This document shows positions 18,921 through 63,433 of a stretch of DNA of 64,000 nucleotides, in pieces. Position numbers and translations under genes: made by a program. The notes under the pieces were generated by a model. That model did no database searches. It saw only the letters and a program-made list of their open reading frames with translations, and was not told the origin of the DNA. The number at the start of each line of letters is the position of its first letter. Position 1 is the stretch's first letter. Source of the stretch: a virus; IMG/VR virus record IMGVR_UViG_3300045988_087374; one strand, written 5' to 3'.

Positions 18921-20285
18921 ATGGAATGTGTTGCATATTTGCGTGTATCTACAGAGAAACAGGCAGAGGAAGGAAACGGACTGGACAGTCAGCGGCGTGA
19001 TATTGAGAACTACTGCCGGAAAAACGAACTGATAATCAAGAATTGGTATGAAGACGATGGTTTTACTGGCTCGAACATGAACCGACCGGGATTGCAAAGA
19101 CTTATCAATGATTGCACCAGAAAACGAATCAAATGCGTAGTAGCATTCAAACTTGACCGATTATCACGAAGCATGGTAGACGGAATCTATCTGATCGAAC
19201 GAATATTTATCCCAAATGGTGTGGAATTCAAGTGCGTCCATGACAGTGTGAGTTACGACAGCCCAATGGAACAGGCATATACACAGATGATGGCAGTGTT
19301 CGCTCAGCTTGATAAAAACACAATGCTGCTTAGAATGCGAGGCGGAATGCTGGAGCGCGTGAAGCAGGGATTCTGGATGGGCGGCGGAAACTTGCCCTAT
19401 TGCTATGACTACGACAGGGAACAGGGGATTTTAGTTCCCATATCGGAACGAGCGGAGCAGGCAAGGCAGGCATTGGACTTGTACTTGTCGGGATATTCGG
19501 ATGCCAAAATCAGAGATATTTTAGGCTACACAAGCGAAAGGGTTGTCAGGAACATTTTGACAAGTCCGGTCAATATCGGGATGATTCCGTATAAGGGAAG
19601 TGTCTATCGAGGAAAGCACAAACCGATTTTTGAAGCAGAGAAATTTGAGGCAGCTCAAGAAATGAGGAAATCTCGCCGACAGCACAAACTTCAGAACATC
19701 AATCAGCCGGCACACTTGCTTACAGGACTATGCTATTGTGGTGTGTGCGGATGTAAGATGAGGTACCAGAAATGGACGCATGGAAAGCATAAGATATACT
19801 GCTGTTCGCGGAATGCGGGATGTTCACATTTGCCTAATTACAATCCTAACTGCGATAATTCTCTTGAATGGGCAGATGATATCGAGAAGCAGGTGGAAGA
19901 ACAGATTCTTAAAATCTCGCTCAATCTATCTTCGTACAAGCCCAAGGAAAAAGAAACCAGACTGGAAATATTGCAAAAGCAGTATGACAAAGAGAAAACC
20001 AAACTAAAACGGCTATATTCGTTGTACGCTGATGGGAACGATACAGTTCTGGAAATGATACAGGAATCCGAAAGCAAGTTGTCAGAAATAAAAGAACAGA
20101 TTGACAGAGAAACAGAGAATACAGAGTACACGCAAAAAAAAGAATACGTCTACGAAAAAATAAAAAGGCTCGCCGACGTTTGGGATCACATCGACAAGCC
20201 AGACAAAAACAAGATACTAAAGAGTATAATCTCAAAAATTGTGATAGTCAATGGAAACGTTGAAATACAGTTAAAGAGATTTTAG
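18921..20285 (+). CDS. large serine recombinase (integrase)
   Basis: YLRVSTEKQ catalytic Ser motif, FKLDRLSRS, Cys-rich zinc-ribbon and coiled-coil C-terminus; AAGGAGG RBS. Confidence 0.9.
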   Translation: MECVAYLRVSTEKQAEEGNGLDSQRRDIENYCRKNELIIKNWYEDDGFTGSNMNRPGLQRLINDCTRKRIKCVVAFKLDRLSRSMVDGIYLIERIFIPNGVEFKCVHDSVSYDSPMEQAYTQMMAVFAQLDKNTMLLRMRGGMLERVKQGFWMGGGNLPYCYDYDREQGILVPISERAEQARQALDLYLSGYSDAKIRDILGYTSERVVRNILTSPVNIGMIPYKGSVYRGKHKPIFEAEKFEAAQEMRKSRRQHKLQNINQPAHLLTGLCYCGVCGCKMRYQKWTHGKHKIYCCSRNAGCSHLPNYNPNCDNSLEWADDIEKQVEEQILKISLNLSSYKPKEKETRLEILQKQYDKEKTKLKRLYSLYADGNDTVLEMIQESESKLSEIKEQIDRETENTEYTQKKEYVYEKIKRLADVWDHIDKPDKNKILKSIISKIVIVNGNVEIQLKRF

Positions 20286-25531: not shown

Positions 25532-26152
25532 ATGAAAAGGACAAAAAGGAAGTGCCCGGAATGCGGAACTGAATTTTTCGGCACAACCGGTTCCACATTA
25601 TGCCCAGCCTGTCAAAAAAGTAAAATTGCAAGTTCTACAATTCGTGAAAGAACTTGCATAGACTGTGGGCGAACTTTTGATGGCGGGCCACGTGCTAAAA
25701 GATGCCCGGAATGCCGCATACTGGCGAGGAAAGAAAACACTGCCAAATATCGCAAGTCCGGGCCTATGCGTCCACTTGGGAGTATTGACTACTGCCAACG
25801 ATGCGGAAAAGAATATGTGGTAAAAACAGGCCGCCAAAAATATTGCTCTGGCAAATGTGCCCAAATTTCTGTCAAGGAATGGCAATCAGAACATAAAAAA
25901 GCAAAGTATAGCCCAGAGGAAGCTAAGAAGCAGCACGCAGAAAGCAGATTGAAAAGAATAAAAATTTGCAGATATTGCGGAAAATCTTTTTGGGATGGCA
26001 CTTCTTCAAATGTATGTTCGGAGTATTGCAGGAAAAAACAGTTGCAGATCAGGAGATATGAGTCAGAGATTCGGCGTGGCTGCAATTGCGATTTGCAAAA
26101 ACTGTTGGATGAAAGAGAGTTGTATAGAGAAGAGCAAAAAAAGAGTGACTAA
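25532..26152 (+). CDS. multi-zinc-ribbon protein
   Basis: repeated CxxC pairs (CPECG, CPAC, CIDCG, CPEC, CQRCG, CRYCG). Confidence 0.55.
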   Translation: MKRTKRKCPECGTEFFGTTGSTLCPACQKSKIASSTIRERTCIDCGRTFDGGPRAKRCPECRILARKENTAKYRKSGPMRPLGSIDYCQRCGKEYVVKTGRQKYCSGKCAQISVKEWQSEHKKAKYSPEEAKKQHAESRLKRIKICRYCGKSFWDGTSSNVCSEYCRKKQLQIRRYESEIRRGCNCDLQKLLDERELYREEQKKSD

Positions 26153-27104: not shown

Positions 27105-27824
27105 TTGTATAAAAGAAATGAGGTGAAAAAGGGGAGGACAACAGAAGAACTTCTGGAGAATTTTGAAGACGAAACAGAAAATCTATTGCGTGCGTTTTGC
27201 GAAAAATACAATATCGAGAGTCCGATGGAGATGAAACAGAATACTTTTGAAGCTGCCATGTCCTACGCTGGTGATCACATTTTCTTGAAACCGGATGGAG
27301 TGACGCTAAAGTATAATCGCCAGACTATTGTTGATGCAGATAACGCTTTGCTTATAGAGTATATCTTAGATAGATATGAGCAGATATGCAAAATCTATAA
27401 CAAAGAAGTTAATATACAAGGTTTTAGTAGATACATAAAAATCAGCGAACAAACCATGTATAACTGGTTAAACGGTGAGTATAAAACAAAGGTATATATA
27501 GATACTGAGGGCAATGTTATAAAAGATATACAGGAATGGAAGTTGAATAAAAGGGGTGAATATAGGGAGATAACAAGCACCTCACACCTTGATTTAGTGA
27601 AAAAAATTAGGTTAATGGATGAACATTCCTTGTCAAATATCGGCATTGGCGACAGGAACAATACCGGCGTTGCAATGAAGCTAAACACTCAGTACGGATG
27701 GAACGCACCAAACGGAAGAGGAGCGAATGAGGATACCGGAAAACCGAAACGCAGTGCACAGGAGATCGCGGAAAAGCACAGAGCAGCACTGGAACTTCCA
27801 GAGCCAGAGAGACCGGAGCTGTAA
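27105..27824 (+). CDS. HTH DNA-binding protein, possible terminase small subunit (start uncertain: TTG 27105, GTG 27123 or AGG 27135)
   Basis: FSRYIKISEQTMYNWLNG HTH; lies before the packaging and head genes. Confidence 0.4.
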   Translation: MYKRNEVKKGRTTEELLENFEDETENLLRAFCEKYNIESPMEMKQNTFEAAMSYAGDHIFLKPDGVTLKYNRQTIVDADNALLIEYILDRYEQICKIYNKEVNIQGFSRYIKISEQTMYNWLNGEYKTKVYIDTEGNVIKDIQEWKLNKRGEYREITSTSHLDLVKKIRLMDEHSLSNIGIGDRNNTGVAMKLNTQYGWNAPNGRGANEDTGKPKRSAQEIAEKHRAALELPEPERPEL

Positions 27825-30349: not shown

Positions 30350-30421
30350 AGGGCTATCACCAAAAGGTAAGGTAACGGGCTTTGATCCCGTCATGTGTGG
30401 GTTCGAATCCCACTAGCCCCG
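30350..30421 (+). tRNA. tRNA-Gln (anticodon UUG)
   Basis: hand-folded cloverleaf; anticodon loop cTTTGat; T arm gtggg-ttcgaat-cccac; weak 1:72 pair (A.C) and G73, as in Gln tRNAs. Confidence 0.8.
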
Positions 30422-30467
30422 CTTGCCAAGATTTTTGGCACTTATGTTTTCTTTTTTTCACCTCGTT

Positions 30468-30520
30468 ACCATCTAGCTCAACGGAGCTGATTAAAGGGAC
30501 TTCAAATGTCCCGGATGGTT
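30468..30520 (+). ncRNA. tRNA-like minihelix lacking an anticodon arm
   Basis: 7-bp acceptor (accatct/ggatggt), hairpin agctc-aacg-gagct, canonical T arm gggac-TTCAAAT-gtccc. Confidence 0.4.
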
Positions 30521-30628
30521 TTCTCGGATCATAGCAGGAGGTGCTTATCGAGAGCCTTTGTTGCGACTGGTGGTTAAGAATCGCAACAGCAGACGCATTG
30601 TTGCTGACAGCCTACAATGTGCTGCTCA

Positions 30629-30702
30629 GGAAATTTAGTTCAGTTGGTCAGAACGTCCGGCTCATAACCGGAAAGTCCAGGGTTCGAGTCCCTGAATTTC
30701 CA
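30629..30702 (+). tRNA. tRNA with CAU anticodon, elongator type (Met or Ile2)
   Basis: GGAAATT-TA-GTTC-AGTTGGTCA-GAAC-G-TCCGG-CTCATAA-CCGGA-AAGTC-CAGGG-TTCGAGT-CCCTG-AATTTCC-A. Confidence 0.85.
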
Positions 30703-31063
30703 TCTCTTTCCTGAATGCCATTCGTACCGTAAAACGAATGGAAAAAACTTGCCGATTGAGCGTTTTGGCAATGTCTGTACGAGTGCGATACGGCGTAGCT
30801 TGTGCAAGGGATTGCTTTTCCGGTCGGCGTGCATCTCGGAGTAGTAATGTTTGGTGTAACGTGCACTTGGCATGGTGAGTTTTCAAGAGATGCAGTCTTC
30901 AAAAGACATACGTATACAGAATCCTAAACAACTCCGTGGAGCATACCACGGTTACCAAAAAGCCGTCAGGTTGGCAAAAATACGATAGTCCAAGTTATGA
31001 AAAATTGCCTAGTGGAACGCATAACACGAAAAAATCATTGCTAACCCGGGGTGTCCGGGTTGA

Positions 31064-31134
31064 CGCAGGATGGAGTATAGGTAACTCGCGGGCCTCCTTA
31101 GCCCGAAAGGGTGGTTCAATTCCGCCTCCTGCAA
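31064..31134 (+). tRNA. initiator-like tRNA with CCU anticodon (a scanner would call it tRNA-Arg-CCU)
   Basis: CGCAGGA-TG-GAGT-ATAGGTA-ACTC-G-CGGGC-CTCCTTA-GCCCG-AAAG-GGTGG-TTCAATT-CCGCC-TCCTGCA-A; C1xA72, A73, A11:U24, GGG/CCC in the anticodon stem. Confidence 0.75.
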
Positions 31135-31348
31135 TTTGCCAAGAGAAACAAGGTGTCCCAGCCCTTACAACTTGGGTGGGCGGTTTAATTCCGCAAGTCG
31201 GCAGTTCCGGCAGATACTCCTCTAGCAAAAGGTTATTGCTATCCTGTTTATCGGTTTTCGGTTCAAAAAGCAAGTTCTCAATTTTCTCTCTGTGGTGTGA
31301 AAATCAACCCAAACACTTAAATAAAGTGTTTGACCGTTACAGGCGGTA

Positions 31349-31420
31349 CGGAATGTAGCTCAGTGGTAGAGCAATGGCTTTGTAAGCTATGTGCCGCAAG
31401 TTCGATTCTTGCCTTTCCGA
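31349..31420 (+). tRNA. tRNA-Thr (anticodon UGU)
   Basis: TA-GCTC-AGTGGTA-GAGC D arm; anticodon loop ttTGTaa; T arm gcaag-ttcgatt-cttgc; one U.U mismatch in the acceptor. Confidence 0.8.
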
Positions 31421-33742: not shown

Positions 33743-34022
33743 TGCATATTTATTTAGCAGCCATTGGATAGAAGCCGTTCAAAGCCTATATCTTTCTTCA
33801 GGAGTGTTTAAAACATGTATTACTTCATATAAAAACAATTATCTTAAAATGCACGGAAAACACAAAATAAGACAGGTCGCTGGAAGAAAGAGAAAAAGAA
33901 AATTTAGTAATCAATTCAGTAAAAATGCAAAGAATAAAATGAGAATTTATCTCAAACGGAAACATAAAGGTATTAAGCATAAAAAGAATAGGAGAAATAA
34001 TGAGCATCAAATCAGCATTTGA
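33732..34022 (+). CDS. highly basic hypothetical protein
   Basis: K/R-rich C-terminus. Confidence 0.45.
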   Translation: MKDNAYLFSSHWIEAVQSLYLSSGVFKTCITSYKNNYLKMHGKHKIRQVAGRKRKRKFSNQFSKNAKNKMRIYLKRKHKGIKHKKNRRNNEHQISI

Positions 34023-35296: not shown

Positions 35297-35506
35297 ATGA
35301 TAGAAATATTTGTAATTTTTGCTTTTGTGTTATTTATATTATTTTTAACTACATGGCAATGTGATGAAAAGCATGGCGTTTCGTATTGGACAGCAATGGT
35401 AATATTCGGAATAATCTTAACCGCTATTGGAGTGGCACTTTCGTATTTTATATACGTAATAGGTTTGGCGTTAATTTCAATATTTTCAAGCGTGTTCATT
35501 GGATAG
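35297..35506 (+). CDS. two-TM membrane protein
   Basis: hydrophobic throughout. Confidence 0.5.
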   Translation: MIEIFVIFAFVLFILFLTTWQCDEKHGVSYWTAMVIFGIILTAIGVALSYFIYVIGLALISIFSSVFIG

Positions 35507-35525
35507 TAAAGAATGGAGTATTTAT

Positions 35526-36125
35526 ATGAAAAAGATACCAACATTATTTGAGCGAGAATTCAAAGATCATAACGTTGTAAAGGTTCTTCCAAAAGTGCAT
35601 CCGGGTATGGAATGGGTACTTGAAGGAGAGGGGATTGCAACAGTCAAATACGACGGCTCTTGCTGTGCAGTAATTGACGGAAAATTTTATAAACGATACG
35701 ACTGCAAGAAGGGTAAAATACCACCAGAGGGATTTATTCCCTGTTGCGAACCAGATGCGATTACAGGTCATTGGCCGGGATGGTTAAAGGTTGATGAGAA
35801 TAATCCGTCTGACAAATGGTTTGTAGAAGCATATTATGTAACTTCAATGTGGACAAATCAAGGTCTTAAATTGCCGGATGGCACATATGAAGCTTACGGA
35901 AAACATTTTCATGGCAATCCGTATAATGATGATTATGATGCCTTGATAAAACATGGCAAAGAAATCGTTGAAGTCGAAAGGACATTTGAGGGGATCAAGA
36001 AATATCTTTTCGAACACGAAATAGAGGGATTAGTTTTCTGGAAAGACGGAAGCCCACAATGTAAAATCAAGCGTTCAGATTTTGGATTTGAATGGCCAGT
36101 AAAGAAGGCAAGGGAGAGTTTATGA
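35526..36125 (+). CDS. ATP-dependent RNA/DNA ligase-family nucleotidyltransferase
   Basis: ATVKYDGS = KxDG adenylation motif I. Confidence 0.55.
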   Translation: MKKIPTLFEREFKDHNVVKVLPKVHPGMEWVLEGEGIATVKYDGSCCAVIDGKFYKRYDCKKGKIPPEGFIPCCEPDAITGHWPGWLKVDENNPSDKWFVEAYYVTSMWTNQGLKLPDGTYEAYGKHFHGNPYNDDYDALIKHGKEIVEVERTFEGIKKYLFEHEIEGLVFWKDGSPQCKIKRSDFGFEWPVKKARESL

Positions 36126-36461: not shown

Positions 36462-38198
36462 ATGTCAAAAATTACAGAAGGTTCGCTTGAATGGTATCGG
36501 GCAATTTTAAATCAAATCATTAATGGTGATATGACGGTCTATCAAAACCAAAAAGATTGCTTTGATCTGCTGTTAAATATGAATATTGACCTTCCTTTCA
36601 AGGATAATCCAGATGCACAGAACATGGCAATGAAAGTCAGTCGGTACGCTCATAATAAAGCTGCGAAAAAGGCAGCAGTTACAGGAAGTGGTTCATTTGA
36701 CGATTTGTACTGGCAGTATTTATTGATGGAAGCACAGAACTATCAGGTTGACAGCGGACTCCTTTACCTTGAAAAGAACCGAATCCCGAAAGAACGATTC
36801 TACGAACCACGAAGAAATGTGTTCTTACAGCATAACATCATAGGTTCACTGCAAGACCTGATGGATGACAAATTAGATATATTTGCATTAAGCGTACCTC
36901 CAGGTTGTGGTAAGAGTACTCTGGAAGATTTCTTTTTATCATTGGTAGGTGGATGGTTCCCGAATGACTTTAACCTGTCTTCGGCACACAGTAGTATTCT
37001 GACACGTTCCCTTTATGATGGTGTTCTGGAAATTATCAATGATCCCGTAGAATACACGTGGCATGAGATATTCCATAACGTAGAAATTCAAGGAACAAAT
37101 GCAAAGGAAACTACAGTCAATCTCGAAAGAAACGGACGATTTAAGACATGGACATTTCGCTCTATTGATGGTTCTTTGACTGGTGCCACTAGATGCAATA
37201 GATTCCTTACTGCCGATGACCTTGTGTCTGGTATTGAAGAAGCTTTGAACAAGAACCGACTTGATACCTTATGGACAAAAGTGGTAAATGACTTGCGTTC
37301 CCGTAGACTTGAGGGATGCAAAGAGTTTTATATTGCCACTAGATGGTCAGTACATGATCCTATCGGAAAGCTGCAACAACTATATGCCGGAAACCCACGG
37401 GCAAGGTTTATTGCAGTGCCGGCTCTTGACGAGAACGGCAAAAGTAATTTTCTGTTTACGGTAAATGGATTCTCTGAGAAATATTTCAATGATGCTAAGG
37501 AATCCATGGATGAAATTTCTTATAACTGCCTTTATCAGCAGCAACCAGTAGAACGTGAAGGATTACTTTTACCACCAGATAAACTTAAAAGGTTCTTCTT
37601 TAGTAAAGACGATGTGCCGGATGGATGCACTGACGAATATGCCATTCTTCCAAAAGAAGAAGCAGATGCGATATGGGCAGTATGCGATACGAAGGATAAA
37701 GGAACGGACTTCGAGTCTTTACCCATTGCATATCAATATGGAGATAAATTTTTCTTTCCCGACGTGGTATTCGATGATACCACAGACTATGATATTTTGG
37801 ATAAAAAGACAGCAGATATTTTGATAAGGCATAATCCGCACAAGATTCGCTTTGAATCAAATAATGTGGGAAATCGTGTCGCTCATAATATTCAAAATAT
37901 GATTAAAGGAAAATGTAGGGCAGATATTGAGACGAAGCCGACATCCGCAAATAAAGAAACAAAAATTCTTGTAAATTCTGACTATATAGCAAAACACTTT
38001 TATTTTTTACACCCAAGTCAATACAAAGCCAAGTCTGATTACGGACTATTTATGGCAAATGTAACCACATATACTACCAGAGCGAAAGTACCGCATGATG
38101 ATGGCATCGACAGTTTAGCTATGATGGCTGAGTATGTGCAAAATCCGCTTGGTGGAAAAGCAACAGCAACGCATAATCCATTTTGGGGAAGGAGGTAA
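36462..38198 (+). CDS. terL: terminase large subunit
   Basis: Walker A VPPGCGKST; size and position before the portal gene. Confidence 0.85.
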   Translation: MSKITEGSLEWYRAILNQIINGDMTVYQNQKDCFDLLLNMNIDLPFKDNPDAQNMAMKVSRYAHNKAAKKAAVTGSGSFDDLYWQYLLMEAQNYQVDSGLLYLEKNRIPKERFYEPRRNVFLQHNIIGSLQDLMDDKLDIFALSVPPGCGKSTLEDFFLSLVGGWFPNDFNLSSAHSSILTRSLYDGVLEIINDPVEYTWHEIFHNVEIQGTNAKETTVNLERNGRFKTWTFRSIDGSLTGATRCNRFLTADDLVSGIEEALNKNRLDTLWTKVVNDLRSRRLEGCKEFYIATRWSVHDPIGKLQQLYAGNPRARFIAVPALDENGKSNFLFTVNGFSEKYFNDAKESMDEISYNCLYQQQPVEREGLLLPPDKLKRFFFSKDDVPDGCTDEYAILPKEEADAIWAVCDTKDKGTDFESLPIAYQYGDKFFFPDVVFDDTTDYDILDKKTADILIRHNPHKIRFESNNVGNRVAHNIQNMIKGKCRADIETKPTSANKETKILVNSDYIAKHFYFLHPSQYKAKSDYGLFMANVTTYTTRAKVPHDDGIDSLAMMAEYVQNPLGGKATATHNPFWGRR

Positions 38199-38202
38199 AA
38201 TA

Positions 38203-38625
38203 AGGAATACAAGGGAATACCTGAATCAAATTCAACGTTACGAGAAAATCATTCACAATAAGTACATAGAGCGAGAACAATTAAGATCCCATGCAACTGG
38301 TCTGAAATCTTTCTGCTACGAATCAGAACGGGTGCAGACATCCGGCAGTCATGACATGATAGGCGATTTGGTGGCAAAGATTGTTGATCTGGAAGCTGAA
38401 ATCATAAGCATTACAAATGAGTACATGGACAAGAGAATGGAAATTATCCACTTAATTGATTCCGTGGAGAGTCCGGTTCTGTACGAGATTCTTTTCAAAA
38501 AATACATTAAAGGTAAACCACTGGATGTGATCGCTGATGAAATTGGATATTCCTATCAGCGAACCAAGGAGCTACATTTATGTGCTATTGAAACCGTAAA
38601 GGAACTTGGACGTTTTGATTCCTAA
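38203..38625 (+). CDS. sigma-region-4/ArpU-RinA-like late regulator; proposed AGG start (alternative: SD-less ATG 38134)
   Basis: GGAGG 38191-38195, 7-nt spacer, AGG 38203 in frame; C-terminal HTH DVIADEIGYSYQRTKELHL. Confidence 0.5.
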   Translation, partial: RNTREYLNQIQRYEKIIHNKYIEREQLRSHATGLKSFCYESERVQTSGSHDMIGDLVAKIVDLEAEIISITNEYMDKRMEIIHLIDSVESPVLYEILFKKYIKGKPLDVIADEIGYSYQRTKELHLCAIETVKELGRFDS

Positions 38626-38686
38626 AACATCATACTGAAACATACTTAAAAATGTAATATAATGTAAGGTGTAAGAATACATGAAA

Positions 38687-38716
38687 GCATCGGAGAAAAA
38701 TCTTCGGTGCTTTTTT
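38687..38716 (+). terminator. rho-independent terminator
   Basis: 10-bp stem, aaaa loop, tttttt. Confidence 0.7.
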
Positions 38717-38717
38717 C

Positions 38718-40178
38718 ATGCCTAAAAAGGAGGACGGGGCAGTGGCAAGAAATAAATCAAAGTATATCGACCTCTGCCAAGGTGAATTTGGCAGAAAGGT
38801 AGCTTATACCGGAGTGAGCAGAATTACACCTAATAACGTCTTGAAAGTAATTGCAGATACCATCGGCACTCACAACAGGAACCGGACAATGATTGACTAT
38901 CTGTACAGATATTACAAAGGAGACCAACCAGTCCTGTACAGAGAAAAACAAGTCAGACCGGAAATCAACAATAAAGTATGTGAGAATCATGCACTTGAAG
39001 TTGTACGTTTTAAGGCATCTCAGACTTATGGTGAACCAATTCAGTTCGTCTGTAAGAAAAAGAATGCAAGTGAAGAAACCAATGCACAGGTGGACTTGTT
39101 CAACGATTATCTGGACGAAGCCAACGCAGAAGCCAGAAACATTGAGTTAGGAACATATCAAAGTGCTGTGGGAACTGCATACAAGTGTATTCTTCGCGAA
39201 GAGGACTGGACAAGCGACTCAGATATGCCACCGTTCAGATTATTCATTCCGTATCCTGGAGATTGTTACATCGTATATTCCAGAAATACCGGTAAACCAA
39301 TGCTTTCCGTGCAGATACTGAAAGATGAAGAGAATCAGCAGTATTATCAGTGCTATTCAAGGGCACAATACTTTATCATTCAGAACGGTAAAATCACAAC
39401 TTCGGGGCTGAATGGTTTTGGAGAAATCCCGATTGTTGAATATCCAAATAACCATGACAGGCTGTCAGATATTGAGATCGCAATAACTATGTTCGATACA
39501 ATCAACGTCATGCAATCAAACCGCATGGACGGAGTTGAACAGTTTGTGCAAGCATTCATGAAATTCAAAAACTGTGAAGTTGATGAAAATGAGTTCCTGA
39601 AGATGGTGAAACTGGGAGCTATATCCGTAAAAGACACAGGATCCGGTTGCCAGTCAGATGTAGAATTAATGACCGCGGAACTGAACCAGTCCGAAAGCCA
39701 AGTTGCAAAGGACGATATTTACAGCAATATGTTGATTGTTGAGGGGATGCCGGACAGACAGCAGAATACAGGCGGAGATACCGGACAGGCAGTATATCTT
39801 CGTAATGGTTGGGATTTTGCAGAACGTAGAGCCAAACTTGACGAACCATTTATCCGTGAAGCTGAGAAAATGTCTGCAAGAATCATTCTAAAGATCATAC
39901 GTAATACCACCGGTGATATAAAACTTTCCACCAGAGATTTTGATGTAAAGATTACCAGAAATCCAACAGACAATATGCTTGTTAAAGCACAGGCACTGGA
40001 TTATCTGGTTAAGAACAAGATACATCCGCTCATTGCATTGATTACTTGTGGATTATTTAGTGACCCGCAGAAAGTATACGAAATGAGTTTTCCGTATATG
40101 CAATCTTTGTACGAGAATCCAGAAGAGGAAGTGCAGAAAGCACAAGCCTTGCTTACTAAGGATGTGGTTACTGAATGA
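38718..40178 (+). CDS. portal protein (SPP1 gp6-like); start may be GTG 38742
   Basis: size and position; AAGGAGG RBS lies inside the first 24 nt of the track ORF. Confidence 0.8.
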   Translation: MPKKEDGAVARNKSKYIDLCQGEFGRKVAYTGVSRITPNNVLKVIADTIGTHNRNRTMIDYLYRYYKGDQPVLYREKQVRPEINNKVCENHALEVVRFKASQTYGEPIQFVCKKKNASEETNAQVDLFNDYLDEANAEARNIELGTYQSAVGTAYKCILREEDWTSDSDMPPFRLFIPYPGDCYIVYSRNTGKPMLSVQILKDEENQQYYQCYSRAQYFIIQNGKITTSGLNGFGEIPIVEYPNNHDRLSDIEIAITMFDTINVMQSNRMDGVEQFVQAFMKFKNCEVDENEFLKMVKLGAISVKDTGSGCQSDVELMTAELNQSESQVAKDDIYSNMLIVEGMPDRQQNTGGDTGQAVYLRNGWDFAERRAKLDEPFIREAEKMSARIILKIIRNTTGDIKLSTRDFDVKITRNPTDNMLVKAQALDYLVKNKIHPLIALITCGLFSDPQKVYEMSFPYMQSLYENPEEEVQKAQALLTKDVVTE

Positions 40179-55446: not shown

Positions 55447-55542
55447 ACTGAAACATACTTAGGAAAATGGTATACTATAGTATATAAAAGCATCTGCCGG
55501 AATGGTGGGTGCTTTTTTCATGCGAAAAGGTAGGGTGATAAA

Positions 55543-55944
55543 AGGTTAGATACTGTAAAAAACCCAATTGAAGAAGTGTTTTCCAGATGGTCAAGGGCAA
55601 TCGAGCCAGTTGTCGGCAAAGGAAATTATTCCATGGATGAAAGCCAGACAATAGCTTCCACCAAAAAGACATACGCAAGGTTATTCTTACTTGGCAGTCC
55701 TACAGCAAGAAGCAATCTTGAGGGGGATGAATGTGCCACAATGCCATCATTTCAAGTCGAATCGTATGCATCCGGAGCAAAGGGTTCTTCAAAAGCATAC
55801 GACATTGATGCAGTTAGCCATGAAACCATGGTCAGTATGGGCTTCCGAAGAACATATGGGCCAGTCAAACAAAACAACGCTGATAACAGTATCAAGCGAG
55901 TTGTCAGCAGATACAGCCGGATATATACCGGCACATTACTCTAG
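55543..55944 (+). CDS. tail-completion/terminator-like protein; proposed AGG start (track: GTG 55576)
   Basis: frame opens at 55534; GGTGAT SD-like 55534-55539; AGG 55543; no canonical start before 55576. Confidence 0.45.
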   Translation, partial: RLDTVKNPIEEVFSRWSRAIEPVVGKGNYSMDESQTIASTKKTYARLFLLGSPTARSNLEGDECATMPSFQVESYASGAKGSSKAYDIDAVSHETMVSMGFRRTYGPVKQNNADNSIKRVVSRYSRIYTGTLL

Positions 55945-55961: not shown

Positions 55962-56255
55962 ATGGAACAGATCATGAACTATGTGAAGCCGGAACTTCTG
56001 ATTGTCGCAGTTGTGCTGTACTTCATCGGAATGGGCATTAAAAAGTCCGAAATTATCCCGGATAAATATATCCCGGCAATCCTTGGCGCTTTAGGAATTC
56101 TGATTTGTGGAATTTACGTGATCGCATCTTCCACAATGTCTGGTTCTCGCGAAATTGCAATGGCAGTTTTTACCGCAATCACGCAGGGAATTCTTGTCGC
56201 AGGATTAAGTAACTATGTGAACCAGATCGTAAAGCAAGCAAATAAAGAAGAATAA
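55962..56255 (+). CDS. holin-like membrane protein
   Basis: 97 aa, 2-3 TM segments, charged C-terminus. Confidence 0.55.
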   Translation: MEQIMNYVKPELLIVAVVLYFIGMGIKKSEIIPDKYIPAILGALGILICGIYVIASSTMSGSREIAMAVFTAITQGILVAGLSNYVNQIVKQANKEE

Positions 56256-56290
56256 TTATTTATGGGTCGAAAGACGGAAAGGAGTACGTA

Positions 56291-56770
56291 AGGGCACGAT
56301 TAACAACGCTTGGTGTAAAATTTTCATACGCCGTTGAAACGGTAAAAGGTACAAAGCCAGCTAAATTCACACAGTTGGAAGAGGCTTCTTCCATCGGTGG
56401 CATTTCTCTTGAAACAGAACAGATTGACGTTTCCGCACTGGAAGATTATCTGACTCAGTATGCGGCAGGTAGACAGGACACAGGTGGTACTTGGGAGATT
56501 GAGTTTATCATGGATCCAGACAAATCCGTTAAACAGATCAAGAAACTGTACGAAGATTCTAAGAATGCAAAAACTACAGGACTGGCAACTTGGTTCCAGG
56601 TATCATTCCCGGATATGTCCGACGCATTCTTCGTTATCGCAGAATGCGGTCGTGAAATCCCAATGCCGGAAATTGCACAGAACGAAGCGGCAACCATGTC
56701 CATTTCTCTTATCATCAGTACTTATAAGGGACTGGACACCAAAGTTGAGCCTACAGCAGCTGCTGAATAA
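56291..56770 (+). CDS. major tail protein; proposed AGG start (track: TTG 56375)
   Basis: AAAGGAG 56278-56284, 6-nt spacer, AGG 56291; 28 in-frame codons (ARLTTLGVKFSYAVETVKGTKPAKFTQ) with no ATG/GTG/TTG. Confidence 0.6.
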   Translation, partial: RARLTTLGVKFSYAVETVKGTKPAKFTQLEEASSIGGISLETEQIDVSALEDYLTQYAAGRQDTGGTWEIEFIMDPDKSVKQIKKLYEDSKNAKTTGLATWFQVSFPDMSDAFFVIAECGREIPMPEIAQNEAATMSISLIISTYKGLDTKVEPTAAAE

Positions 56771-57630: not shown

Positions 57631-57650
57631 GATTAAAAGGAGGTGGCTTA

Positions 57651-60600
57651 AGGGCTGATAATACCATAGATACTCTTGATATACAGATAACCAGTAGCAC
57701 CGAGAAAGCAGTGCAGTCAATCAGAAATTTATCCAAAAGTCTAATTGGATTGAATAAATCATTAGGAAGTGTTAATGCCAACGGAATCCAAAAATATGCA
57801 AATGAACTTCAAAAGGTTGTATCTGCATTTGATTCCTTGAACTCGAAAACTTCTGGATTGTCGACAGGGATGCAACGGGTTTCGGAATCATTATCATCTA
57901 TTGGAAAAGTAGATTTTAAAGAGACCGGAGTAAACTCATTTATCAATGCCATGAACCGTTTGGCTAAGGTGGATATGAGCAATTTCGATACTTCAAAACT
58001 TGGAAATATCGTATCTTCTTTGTCGGCATTGGCAAATATTCCGAATGTTTCATCCGGTGTAAATCGTTTTGTCTCTTCTGTGGCGAAATTAGCCGGGACT
58101 GGTGATTCTATCGGAACGGTTTCTAAGGAGATCACAAGCCTTGCGGACGCATTAAAAAGAGCAACCGAAAAGATGAGTACGGTTGGAGATGTTTCTGAAT
58201 CTGTCAACACATTTGTCCAATCTATTGCAAGACTGGCAAGTGCTGGAAACAAGACCGGGCAGACTGCAAGCCAGTTGTCTGTGTTGTCCAAGGCGTTACT
58301 TGATTTTTTTAATGCCATGCGTGATGCACCTAATATCAGTTCCGATGTTATCCGTATGACAGAAGCATTAGCACAATTGGCGAGAGCGGGTGGAAATATT
58401 GGAAGTTCCACCAGTTCTGTATCGAATTCGTTCAATACTATCAGCACTTCTTCTTCGAGGACGGAAATTGCTATACGAGGAATGTCACGGGTATTTTCCA
58501 CATTTGCTTTAAAGACGATTTCTCTTGGTCAAAAGGCTGCATCTGCAATCGCAAGGATTGGAATATCCGCGATCAATACCGCATCCAAGCTCAAGAAGAT
58601 GTCTGGAATTTTTACTACAATTAGCAACAAAATCAACAGCTTGTATATGCGAATGTTCTTCCTACAGAGGATTGGTTCTACACTGTTCAAACCGATAAAA
58701 TCAGCTGTCAATTATGTGGAAACTCTCAACTATTTCAACTCTGCATTCAAGCAAGTAGCTGAGAATGTGGATACGGACGAATGGAAGAAAAGTGGTATAA
58801 AATCCGCTGAAGCATATGCAGATTCGTTCCAAGAAAGAGCTAAGCAACTTTCACAGAAGCTGACAGGGTTTGAAGTTTCAGATACTGGCGAACTAACCAG
58901 AACCAATACTGCCAATCTTGGGCTTGACCCGGAAAAGACTATGCAGTATCAGGCAACATTTGCACAGATGGCATCTTCTATGGGAGATACATCGGAAACT
59001 GCGTTGAAGCTGTCAAATGCCTTGACTATGGTTGGCGCTGACCTTGCTTCTGTGCGAAACATGGACTTCGAGGATGTATGGCAGGATATGGCATCCGGCT
59101 TGACTGGTATGAGCCGTGCAATGGACAAGTACGGCATCAATATCCGTAATGCTAATATGCAACAAGAATTATACAATCTGGGAATTGACACCAGCATATC
59201 AAAGTTATCTCAGGCAGACAAAACAATCTTAAGAACGATTATTTTGCTGAATAACTCACAGTATGCATGGGGTGATTTGGCTAAAACGATTAACGGGTCA
59301 GTAGCGTAATAAATGCGTAGCTACTGGCAAGTCGCTCATATCGAAACCGACAAGTAGGGTATGAGTCATCAGTGATGAAATAAGCTGGAAAGCCGTTTGC
59401 AACGGTAATCAGAGAGTGAAGGCTGTGATTAAAACCGCAGTCAACCGCAACGCGTAGGAAGTGAACCTATAGTTGAGATACTACAGAATATAATCTTCCC
59501 AAGAGTCATCACTATCGGTCGGTACGGATGCAGAATCCGTGGTAAAAAGGTACGCTGGACTTGTACTGTAATGGTGCAGAAGTAAGGATAAAAAGCCTTG
59601 CGATAACAATTCGAGAACAGCCAGCAAACCAGATTCGTATGCTTCAATCTAACTTTGCTTCACTCGGAAGAACAATAGGTTCTTTGTTCATTCCTATACT
59701 GCAAACAGTTCTTCCATATATTAACGCAATTGTAATCGCACTGCAAAGAATGTTCGCTTATATCGCGAAACTTCTTGGTATTAAACTATCAAATTATGTT
59801 GCTTCTACGGGTGGAATTGCTGTTGATACAAGTAACATTGCAGACGAAATGGACAATGCCAGTGATTCTATTGATACTGCAAATAAGAATGCCAAAAAAC
59901 TTGAAAAAACATTATCTGTACTTGCTTTTGATGAACTGAATCAGCTTAGTGATAACTCTGATTCCAGCGGTACGAGCAGTCCGACATCCGGCACTGGCGG
60001 TAGTGCAGCACACCTTCCGGCATTGGATGCAGCACTAGATGCGGCTCTTGCCAATTACCAAAAGGCGTGGGACGAAGCATTCAAGAAAATGTCCAATAGG
60101 GCAAATGAGATGGCAGATGCTATTGTAAATGCTTTTAAGAAAAAAGACTGGAAAGGTCTTGGAAAAATAATGGCAGACGGCATCAACTGGGGAATGAAAA
60201 AACTCTATGATGCAATCAACTGGAATAAAGTTGGCCCGTATATTACAAAATTCACCAGTGCATTCACTCAGACGTTCAACAGCCTTGTCGATAATATCAA
60301 CTGGGACTTGATCGGACGTACTTTTGGAGCCGGTGTTAATACGATTGTTAATACAACAAATCAACTTTTAGAGGGAATTGACTGGAAGAACCTCGGGGCG
60401 AAGTTTGCTTCTGGAGTCTCAGGACTTGTAAGGGAAGTTGACTGGGAAAACTTCGGAAATCTTATTGGCAACTCTTTTATGCGTGGATGGAAAATCTTCG
60501 CGGGATTTGTCGAAAATCTTCCGTACAGCGAAATTGGTGTTGCTGTAGCAAACGGACTCAACGGAATTTTCCGTAAGATTAATTTTGCAGAGATTGCAGA

Positions 60601-63312: not shown

Positions 63313-63372
63313 CAACAGGCTAACCCGACGGGGGACAAGTGCAATTCCATGATGCACCTGCCTGTTGTTTTT
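63313..63372 (+). terminator. terminator-like hairpin
   Basis: caacaggc/gcctgttg stem, then ttttt. Confidence 0.45.
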
Positions 63373-63433
63373 ATACATCATGGATCTGTGACTACAAGGC
63401 AGTCACGCATTAACGACATGGAGGTTATCTATT

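Follow-up and report, generated by a model that had tools for sequence, protein, structure and literature searches.

Can a phage gene start at AGG, and what would read such a start? The question is raised by a gene for a presumed late transcription regulator, which lies immediately after terL in IMG/VR virus record IMGVR_UViG_3300045988_087374; the stretch analysed, referred to here as the window, comprises 64,000 nucleotides. To our knowledge, translation of bacterial and phage proteins begins as a rule at AUG or a codon close to it, read by tRNAfMet(CAU). An earlier note on the window had proposed that the regulator starts instead at AGG 38203. We conclude with good confidence that this AGG is the genuine start of the regulator, that late genes with such a start number at least four in this temperate human-gut phage, and that a phage-encoded transfer RNA (tRNA) with anticodon CCU, not the host tRNAfMet, would read the codon. 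We also consider it likely, if a little less firmly, that the whole represents natural orthogonal initiation, in which a dedicated CCU initiator tRNA, late genes moved from AUG to AGG, and four-base reading would together make translation of those genes conditional on the tRNA.

The junction of terL and the regulator gene reads CCATTTTGGGGAAGGAGGTAAAATAAGGAATACAAGGGAATACCTG. Inspection bore out its earlier description: terL ends at TAA 38196-38198, a Shine-Dalgarno (SD) sequence GGAGG occupies 38191-38195, and AGG 38203 follows after 7 nt. The codon (38203-38205, with TAAGG at 38201-38205) is in frame with the open reading frame (ORF) 38125..38625, which when read from the AGG encodes (X)NTREYLNQIQRYEKII. 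The product matched phrog_36, 'transcriptional regulator', with E=1.4e-14; its match to Pfam DUF1492 was weak (17.9 bits, under the cut-off of 21.5), as were matches to sigma-70 region 4, all below cut-offs. A second AGG at 38212, also pointed out earlier, is indeed in frame but is only an internal Arg codon, with AGA there in orthologues. The list of canonical alternatives needed amendment. ATG 38134 does lie 65 nt inside terL without an SD; the nearest downstream candidates, however, lie at +43 codons (GTG) and +51 (ATG) and not about 60 codons away; both lack an SD and are not conserved. TTG 38149 and GTG 38152, again without an SD, are in frame inside terL as well.

Orthologues were compared at 80 loci anchored on terL and taken from IMG/VR. 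In all 80 of these relatives a canonical regulator ATG was found within a few bases of the terL stop, and the GGAG of the SD was kept in all relatives. By aligned locus, the regulator start codon was ATG in about 69 and AGG in 8 (window included), which answers the earlier suggestion to look for ATG at the aligned codon and supports AGG 38203 as the true start position. The ATG allele ggagatacgcATGAACACGAGAGAATAT, for example, encodes M-N-T-R-E-Y-L where the window has (AGG)-N-T-R-E-Y-L, and the allele ggagatacgcATG-AAC-ACG-AGA-GAA-TAT is the window protein with ATG for AGG; a gut phage fragment in GenBank, MT838118, likewise shows ATG at this position. The AGG was kept in the closest regulator relatives (loci L007-L010 and L297), and the spacers between SD and AGG differed among the AGG alleles (TAAAATA, TAGATCA, TAAGGCA, TAAAAA). 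The alignment did not place the start downstream, an outcome that would have told against the AGG; conservation and purifying selection extend over the N-terminal 43 codons.

These comparisons also bear on the suggestion that the regulator starts at ATG 38134, TTG 38149, GTG 38152, ATA 38200 or the GTG or ATG 43-51 codons downstream, or else by termination-reinitiation without a codon-specific tRNA. We regard this as very unlikely. Public gene calls (L306-L311) begin the regulator at GTG 38152 (157 amino acids) or ATG 38356 (89 amino acids), and the terL stop, 4 nt 5' of the AGG, is favourable to coupling. Yet the upstream starts are not conserved: ATG 38134 is missing from every AGG-bearing relative, the codon preceding the AGG is ATA in the window and TCA, GCA or AAA in relatives, and in two AGG relatives (L297 and L010) the AGG is preceded, two codons earlier, by a stop codon. 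A downstream start would leave the conservation of the N-terminal codons unexplained. Nor does coupling explain the AGG starts at 55543 and 57651 described below, which follow intergenic regions, or why the codon is strictly AGG.

We then scanned all AGG codons near ORF 5' ends in the window against 170 related loci; the tail comparison drew on 80 loci anchored on the major tail gene. Exactly four window AGGs aligned with ATG starts (in 68-75 relatives): 38203, 55543, 56291, and 57651. At 55543, a site not noted before and the first codon of a gene of unknown function, 72 orthologues have ATG and 5 loci AGG (window included in this and the following counts); reading upstream from the AGG, a stop is met after 4 codons, and downstream are a GTG and an ATG without an SD. 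The start of the major tail gene at 56291, in the context AAAGGAGtacgtaAGG, is ATG in 75 loci and AGG in 6, and no canonical codon lies upstream. At the tape-measure gene (57651, context AAAGGAGGTGgcttaAGG) the counts are 72 ATG and 5 AGG loci, and a stop lies 7 codons upstream. No usable canonical start exists for these genes.

The reverse scan, starting from AGG-bearing relatives, yielded four further gene families with AGG alleles: a 77-amino-acid zinc-ribbon protein (start ATG 34000 in the window); two distal tail genes, located past the window end; and terS (small terminase), with an AGG allele where 29 relatives have GTG. In all, eight gene families have AGG in the window or in tRNA-bearing relatives at a codon that is ATG (GTG in one family) in about 69-81 loci, and relatives appear to have up to eight AGG-initiated genes. 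These genes serve packaging, regulation and morphogenesis, and all but the terS cases lie downstream of the tRNA cluster. A fifth AGG start in the window itself is possible at the terS-like gene at 27135, although the case is ambiguous: L292 has GTG and L303 has AGG one codon 5' of the window's AGG, and an in-frame GTG (27123) lies 4 codons upstream. In the early region (1-26 kb), SD and ORF scanning revealed no evident AGG start, with no orthologue check made of that region. Among other candidates, the AGGs at 25547, 8964, 17431, 18288, and 51806 were rejected for their adjoining canonical ATGs with an SD, and that of the TAAGG at 59585 was rejected on finding the same AGG in tRNA-less relatives, after an insert of about 275 nt of non-coding sequence in the tape-measure gene.

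Could the AGGs be artefacts of sequencing, assembly or base modification that turned the T of ATG into G? The TAAGG context common to the three sites first noted would be compatible with such an error, to which we nevertheless assign almost no probability. The exact window junction, GGAGGTAAAATAAGG, was found in six assemblies from different samples, and AGG 38203 is therefore not a sequencing error. More generally, the same AGGs recur in many independent assemblies from different studies with varying surrounding polymorphisms, ATG starts elsewhere in this genome remain intact after TA or AA (e.g. ataATG at 34000), and an artefact would need to track the presence of a tRNA gene.

That tRNA gene lies about 7 kb upstream of AGG 38203 and was found by ARAGORN, with a score under the Rfam tRNA model of 46.9 bits against a gathering score of 29. 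Its layout is CGCAGGA-UG-GAGU-AUAGGUA-ACUC-G-CGGGC-CUCCUUA-GCCCG-AAAG-GGUGG-UUCAAUU-CCGCC-UCCUGCA-A. The acceptor stem (CGCAGGA/UCCUGCA) has no Watson-Crick pair at 1:72 (C1xA72) and has G2:C71 and C3:G70; the D stem has A11:U24, which is of the R11:Y24 type found in initiators, as opposed to the Y11:R24 of elongators. The anticodon stem contains G28-G30:C40-C42, including G29:C41 and G30:C40, followed by C31:G39, flipped relative to G31:C39. The remaining diagnostic positions are U20, U37, A57, and A73. Bacterial initiators are defined by a 1:72 mismatch, which with 2:71 and 3:70 forms the formyltransferase determinant, and by the G:C pairs 29:41, 30:40 and 31:39, the first two contacted by A1339 and G1338 of 16S rRNA, with G30 crucial; E. 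coli can be sustained by a cg/GC/cg initiator mutant (PMC5389676). R11:Y24 is a further formyltransferase element (PMC9976931). The CCU tRNA thus appears to follow the published initiator rules in all but the orientation of 31:39, and the determinants of formylation are present. Its identity to tRNAfMet of E. coli was 72%, compared with 51% for tRNA-Arg(CCU) (argW) of the same species; the remaining tRNAs of the cluster reached 53-55%, and the tRNA in the same slot of relatives 71%. Both E. coli references were checked against E. coli genomes. Its anticodon is CCU, not CAU, which places it outside tRNAfMet in the strict sense.

The automatic label for this gene is tRNA-Arg. In E. coli the main determinant for arginyl-tRNA synthetase (ArgRS) is A20, with C35, U36 or G36, and A or G73 as further identity elements (PMC9976931). 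The CCU tRNA has C35, U36, and A73 and lacks A20, a U20 following G18-G19 in the D loop AUAGGUA. Judged by its sequence, it is an initiator body with a CCU anticodon and not an ordinary tRNA-Arg, because it lacks A20, carries the 1:72 mismatch and has U37. Which amino acid it would carry is less clear-cut: Met and Arg appear about equally likely. Charging with Met is possible, as E. coli methionyl-tRNA synthetase (MetRS) is reported to mis-methionylate tRNA-Arg(CCU) through the shared C34 and U36 (PMC9976931).

The tRNA is the third of a cluster of four. Relatives have in its place a phage-encoded, initiator-like tRNA(CAU), which combines the same acceptor stem, (C/G)GCAGGA/UCCUGCA, with a 1:72 mismatch and A11:U24; it is the likely ancestor or counterpart of the CCU tRNA, which replaces it. 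Most of the relatives L091-L170 (e.g. L127:5074, L098:6091) carry this tRNA(CAU), in the slot after the Gln and Met tRNAs; its anticodon stem has only two G:C pairs and its loop is CUCAUAU. The 17-nt anticodon stem-loop of the CCU tRNA occurred in only five IMG/VR contigs, and a 25-mer of the tRNA in 15 human-gut metagenome contigs, in which the tRNA was 97-100% conserved and the flanks were 81-97% identical. An IMG/VR search for the same scaffold with any other anticodon returned only the five CCU contigs, and one for a canonical E. coli-type initiator stem-loop with CCU (TCGGGCTCCTAACCCGA) returned no match. The 15-mer GGGCCTCCTTAGCCC, searched over 596 Gb of genome contigs, gave 120 chance matches in unrelated taxa, none of them a tRNA, the pattern being too short.

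Does the tRNA accompany the AGG starts? Co-occurrence was counted in those loci where the tRNA slot could be seen together with one or more of the gene families. An AGG start was present in 13/18 loci with an intact CCU tRNA, in 0/69 with a CAU tRNA or no initiator-like tRNA, and in 0/2 with a mutated CCU copy; by distinct genomes the comparison is 9/13 vs 0/69 (Fisher p=8e-12 by locus, 2e-9 by genome). The group is strongly mosaic: the window terL is 97% identical to that of tRNA-less genomes, yet the regulator and tail module are AGG-type. Despite this mosaicism, AGG alleles were never seen without the CCU tRNA. Of the two mutated copies, that at L094:4555-4625 (contig ..110775) seems to be decaying, its G30:C40 pair being broken; every start in its genome is ATG. 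The other (L105:2952-3023, contig ..087792) combines a CAU-type scaffold with CCU in the loop UUCCUUA, in a genome that again has only ATG starts, and may be an intermediate or of independent origin.

The association bears directly on a simpler account, in which AGG is a weak, non-cognate start that keeps expression low via the host fMet-tRNA, and the CCU tRNA is an unrelated elongator for AGG. Initiation is detectable from many codons in E. coli (10.1101/063800), phages often carry tRNAs for rarer codons, and AGG makes up 6.6 of every 1000 codons in the window. We nevertheless find this account very unlikely. AGG differs from AUG at the second and third positions and is not near-cognate (a change at the first or third only); on codons neither canonical nor near-cognate, the host initiator works at 0.01-1% of AUG in E. 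coli (10.1101/063800), a rate too weak for a major tail protein and implausible for a tape measure. The CCU tRNA, with C1xA72, U37 and no A20, resembles tRNAfMet far more than tRNA-Arg(CCU), and the dominant Arg codon in the window is AGA, not AGG. None of the 69 loci lacking the tRNA had an AGG start, and this account would leave a change of the base before the start codon unexplained.

That base, at position -1, is A in every AGG start, across 16 distinct contexts and eight families (the ambiguous 27135 has G). In the regulator it is A in all four AGG spacer variants and C, T or G in the ATG alleles; four families in total have ATG alleles with C, T or G at -1 (p=3e-7), and -1 therefore changed along with the start codon. 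Position 37 of tRNAs is almost always a purine, and U37 of the CCU tRNA is complementary to this A. The natural reading is that U37 and A(-1) would give a four-base pairing, 5'-AAGG-3':3'-UUCC-5'. In E. coli, position 37 of tRNAfMet pairs with mRNA position -1 in what has been called 'quadruplet' pairing, for which A37G and A37U variants were tested (PMC10018350). The earlier note had drawn attention to the overlap of the AGG with a TAA (TAAGG), and an SD with TAAGG does recur at 56291 and 57651; the T at -2 is variable (T, C, A or G in relatives), however, and the A at -1 alone is invariant. A five-base pairing, UAAGG:CCUUA, that included A38 was rejected for the same lack of conservation at -2.

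Do the AGG alleles belong to living genes? The alternative is that the AGGs are start-codon mutations in a decaying prophage. At least one assembly contains the element as a prophage, since the same terL protein was found on 23 contigs, one of them 532,862 bp long, and a serine recombinase at 18921-20285 implies a temperate phage. Even so, we consider decay highly improbable. Four to eight genes, essential structural ones included, all changed exactly from ATG to AGG with no other lesion and with ORFs intact, and the AGG alleles are spread over at least nine distinct genomes from many samples. The ratio of non-synonymous to synonymous substitution rates (dN/dS) among AGG alleles was 0.02-0.28, at synonymous divergences (dS) up to 0.24, which speaks against dead genes: 0.02-0.26 for the regulator, 0.00-0.12 for the major tail protein, and 0.08-0.16 for the tape measure. 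Over the 88 codons that separate the AGGs from the nearest canonical starts downstream, the ratio was 0.03-0.08. Purifying selection that includes these segments indicates that the AGG genes are alive and translated from the AGG region. Positions of the features are collected in Table 1.

Table 1. Positions of the candidate AGG starts, the CCU tRNA and associated features in the window.
Feature	Position	Strand	Remarks
terS-like gene, possible fifth AGG start	27135..27824	+	GAGGTGAaaaaggggAGG; G at -1; weak Pfam GP3_package match
tRNA cluster: Gln(UUG), Met(CAU, elongator-like), CCU, Thr(UGU)	30350..31420	+	third slot is the CCU tRNA
Initiator-type tRNA, anticodon CCU	31064..31134	+	labelled tRNA-Arg by ARAGORN; sequence CGCAGGAUGGAGUAUAGGUAACUCGCGGGCCUCCUUAGCCCGAAAGGGUGGUUCAAUUCCGCCUCCUGCAA
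terL	36462..38198	+	weak T7-terminase RNaseH-like Pfam match
SD of regulator gene, GGAGG	38191..38195	+	inside the last terL codons
AAGG: probable initiation codon AGG (38203-38205) with invariant A at -1	38202..38205	+	complementary to tRNA positions 34-37 (CCUU)
Regulator gene, probable AGG start	38203..38625	+	140 codons including start; DUF1492/sigma region 4-like
Gene of unknown function, probable AGG start	55543..55944	+	133 codons; GGGTGA at 55533-55538; A at -1; upstream of tail genes
Major tail protein gene, probable AGG start	56291..56770	+	phrog_158; AAAGGAG at 56278-56284; 6-nt spacer; A at -1
Tape-measure gene (N-terminal ORF), probable AGG start	57651..59309	+	tape-measure PHROGs; AAAGGAGGTG at 57636-57645; 5-nt spacer; A at -1

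How might such a system work? The SD would position the 30S subunit at the AGG start, and the phage CCU tRNA, expressed, aminoacylated and formylated, would enter the P site and pair there with AAGG instead of the host tRNAfMet, U37 adding a fourth pair with the invariant A at -1. When the anticodon of an initiator tRNA is altered by engineering, initiation does occur at the codon that matches it (10.1101/2021.05.25.445580). Translation of the late genes (regulator, major tail, tape measure, and in relatives terS) would then depend on the phage tRNA, and the N-terminal residue of their products may not be Met. More speculatively, this dependence could lock late expression in the lysogen or set its timing, and as a by-product AGG modules could be incompatible with tRNA-less relatives.

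Several observations weigh against this account and should be set beside it. The third '3GC' pair of the CCU tRNA is C31:G39 instead of G31:C39, and a pyrimidine at position 37 is very unusual in any tRNA. A 1:72 mismatch alone is unspecific, as the tRNA-Gln of the cluster has one too; among 183 distinct tRNAs in all fetched loci, the mismatch and A11:U24 occurred together only in the tRNAs of this slot. The rules applied for the tRNA, formyltransferase (Fmt), MetRS and ArgRS are those of E. coli, and those of the actual host, whichever it is, may differ. The p-values of the association are inflated by shared ancestry and make the cases look more independent than they are, since a single switch per gene, with the allele then inherited, is probable. 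Finally, four genomes with an intact tRNA (..075970, ..064669, ERZ1027604, and ERZ779861) show no AGG start in their readable parts, although such genomes would be expected if the tRNA had to come first.

A separate feature of the anticodon arm concerns positions 31-38 of the tRNA (C31-A38; window 31094-31101), which read CCUCCUUA and resemble the anti-SD 3' end of E. coli 16S rRNA. All three deviations from the canonical initiator loop, G31C, A35C, and A37U, create this likeness, which is probably a coincidence. A role for CCUCCUUA as an SD sponge was set aside; C31 is paired in the stem, and U33 and C32 find no complement in the +4/+5 bases that follow the AGG starts.

How does the system compare with those already described? 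The searchable literature contained no natural non-CAU initiator tRNA and no phage AGG start system, only engineered systems and reporter studies, but subscription papers lay partly outside it and an earlier description is possible. The combination of AGG starts and a CCU initiator tRNA appears to be new in kind. With tRNAfMet the CCU tRNA shares the 1:72 mismatch, G2:C71, C3:G70, A11:U24, G29:C41, G30:C40, A73 and the A57 of the T-loop, and it occupies the slot of the initiator-like tRNA(CAU) of related phages; it differs in being phage-encoded and in having CCU for CAU, U37 for A37, and C:G for G:C at 31:39. Elongator tRNA-Arg(CCU) has the same anticodon, C35, U36, and A73, whereas the CCU tRNA lacks A20 and a Watson-Crick 1:72 pair, has U37 for a purine, and is only 51% identical to argW.

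In function the system is like the engineered i-tRNA(AAC), an anticodon mutant of E. coli tRNAfMet used with GUU starts (10.1101/2021.05.25.445580), in which an initiator body with a changed anticodon serves a complementary non-AUG start behind a normal SD, and genes depend on it. Such engineered initiators are laboratory constructs, however, whereas the phage system is natural, occurs in several wild genomes, involves 4-8 genes, and has the extra pair between -1 and 37. An amber-initiator tRNA(CUA) is another engineered orthogonal initiator tRNA. In quadruplet pairing the -1 base is likewise complementary to tRNA position 37, and an A37U initiator favoured complementary -1 bases; the effect there is a modest modulation by A37/U(-1), as opposed to U37 with an invariant A(-1) here (PMC10018350). 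Stop-codon recoding by suppressor tRNAs in gut phages (PMC10879173, PMC11210395) is similar in that a phage tRNA alters the meaning of a codon concentrated in the phage's own, mainly late genes, which therefore depend on it; it too occurs in human-gut phages, and standard gene callers misannotate it as well. That recoding affects termination and elongation (TAG/TGA) and not initiation, and its tRNA is a suppressor, not of initiator type; the window genes are intact ORFs under the standard code, with no in-frame stops, and do not show stop recoding.

If the account is true, it would be a natural exception to the rule of AUG and tRNAfMet(CAU), with a virus bringing its own initiator tRNA for another codon. 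It would also be an evolved counterpart of synthetic orthogonal initiation, offering a ready-made initiator scaffold with U37 and four-base pairing; a further layer of phage gene regulation beside stop-codon recoding; and a case showing which initiator features nature keeps when the anticodon changes, and how charging falls between MetRS and ArgRS. For annotation it carries a warning, as AGG-start genes are systematically truncated or mis-extended (the regulator at 157 or 89 amino acids instead of 140) and the tRNA is labelled tRNA-Arg.

Other features of the window and its relatives may be noted. One tRNA scaffold (CGGAATGTAGCTCAG...CCTTTCCGA) is found at 31349-31420 and in the same slot of L138:6818, L143:5915, L002:9408, L160:3812, and L120:5035, with anticodons that vary by relative (Thr UGU, Arg UCU, Ala UGC, ACA, AUC, and others), and anticodon switching seems common in this cluster. 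Some relatives (L162:6666-6737, L165:6290-6361, and L170) have a short-arm, opal-suppressor-like tRNA with anticodon UCA, of which a sister copy in L163 and L166 has a UGA anticodon; those with the UCA tRNA may use stop-codon recoding. Scanning for promoters around the cluster turned up nothing beyond chance level, and Rfam at permissive thresholds added no families around the cluster or the tape-measure insert. Between the cluster and terL, ORF 35499-36125 has a weak match to the Pfam RNA ligase RLIG1 (E=2e-4, below cut-off) and could have a tRNA-repair function.

The tape-measure frame stops at 59309 and resumes near 59561-59585, with about 275 nt of non-coding sequence between (59310-59584). 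This insert is missing in some relatives, where the protein is apparently continuous; it had a folding z-score of -0.96 and no Rfam match, and an intron, an insertion or a split gene are candidates. An element of about 80-90 nt occurs twice, at 38634-38721 directly 5' of the portal gene and at 55447-55523 directly 5' of the AGG-start gene at 55543. Its parts are, in order, ACTGAAACATACTTA, a -10-like stretch rich in A and T, a hairpin, and GTGCTTTTTTCATGC. It could serve as a late promoter whose hairpin resembles a terminator or antiterminator, and the regulator may act on it. Between the gene at 55543 and the major tail gene, a 97-amino-acid ORF (55962-56255) matched holin PHROGs (phrog_1129, E=5e-23), an odd position for a holin. 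At the far end of the window, 63313-63383 matched the Rfam int-alpA RNA with 52.2 bits, against a gathering score of 35.8.

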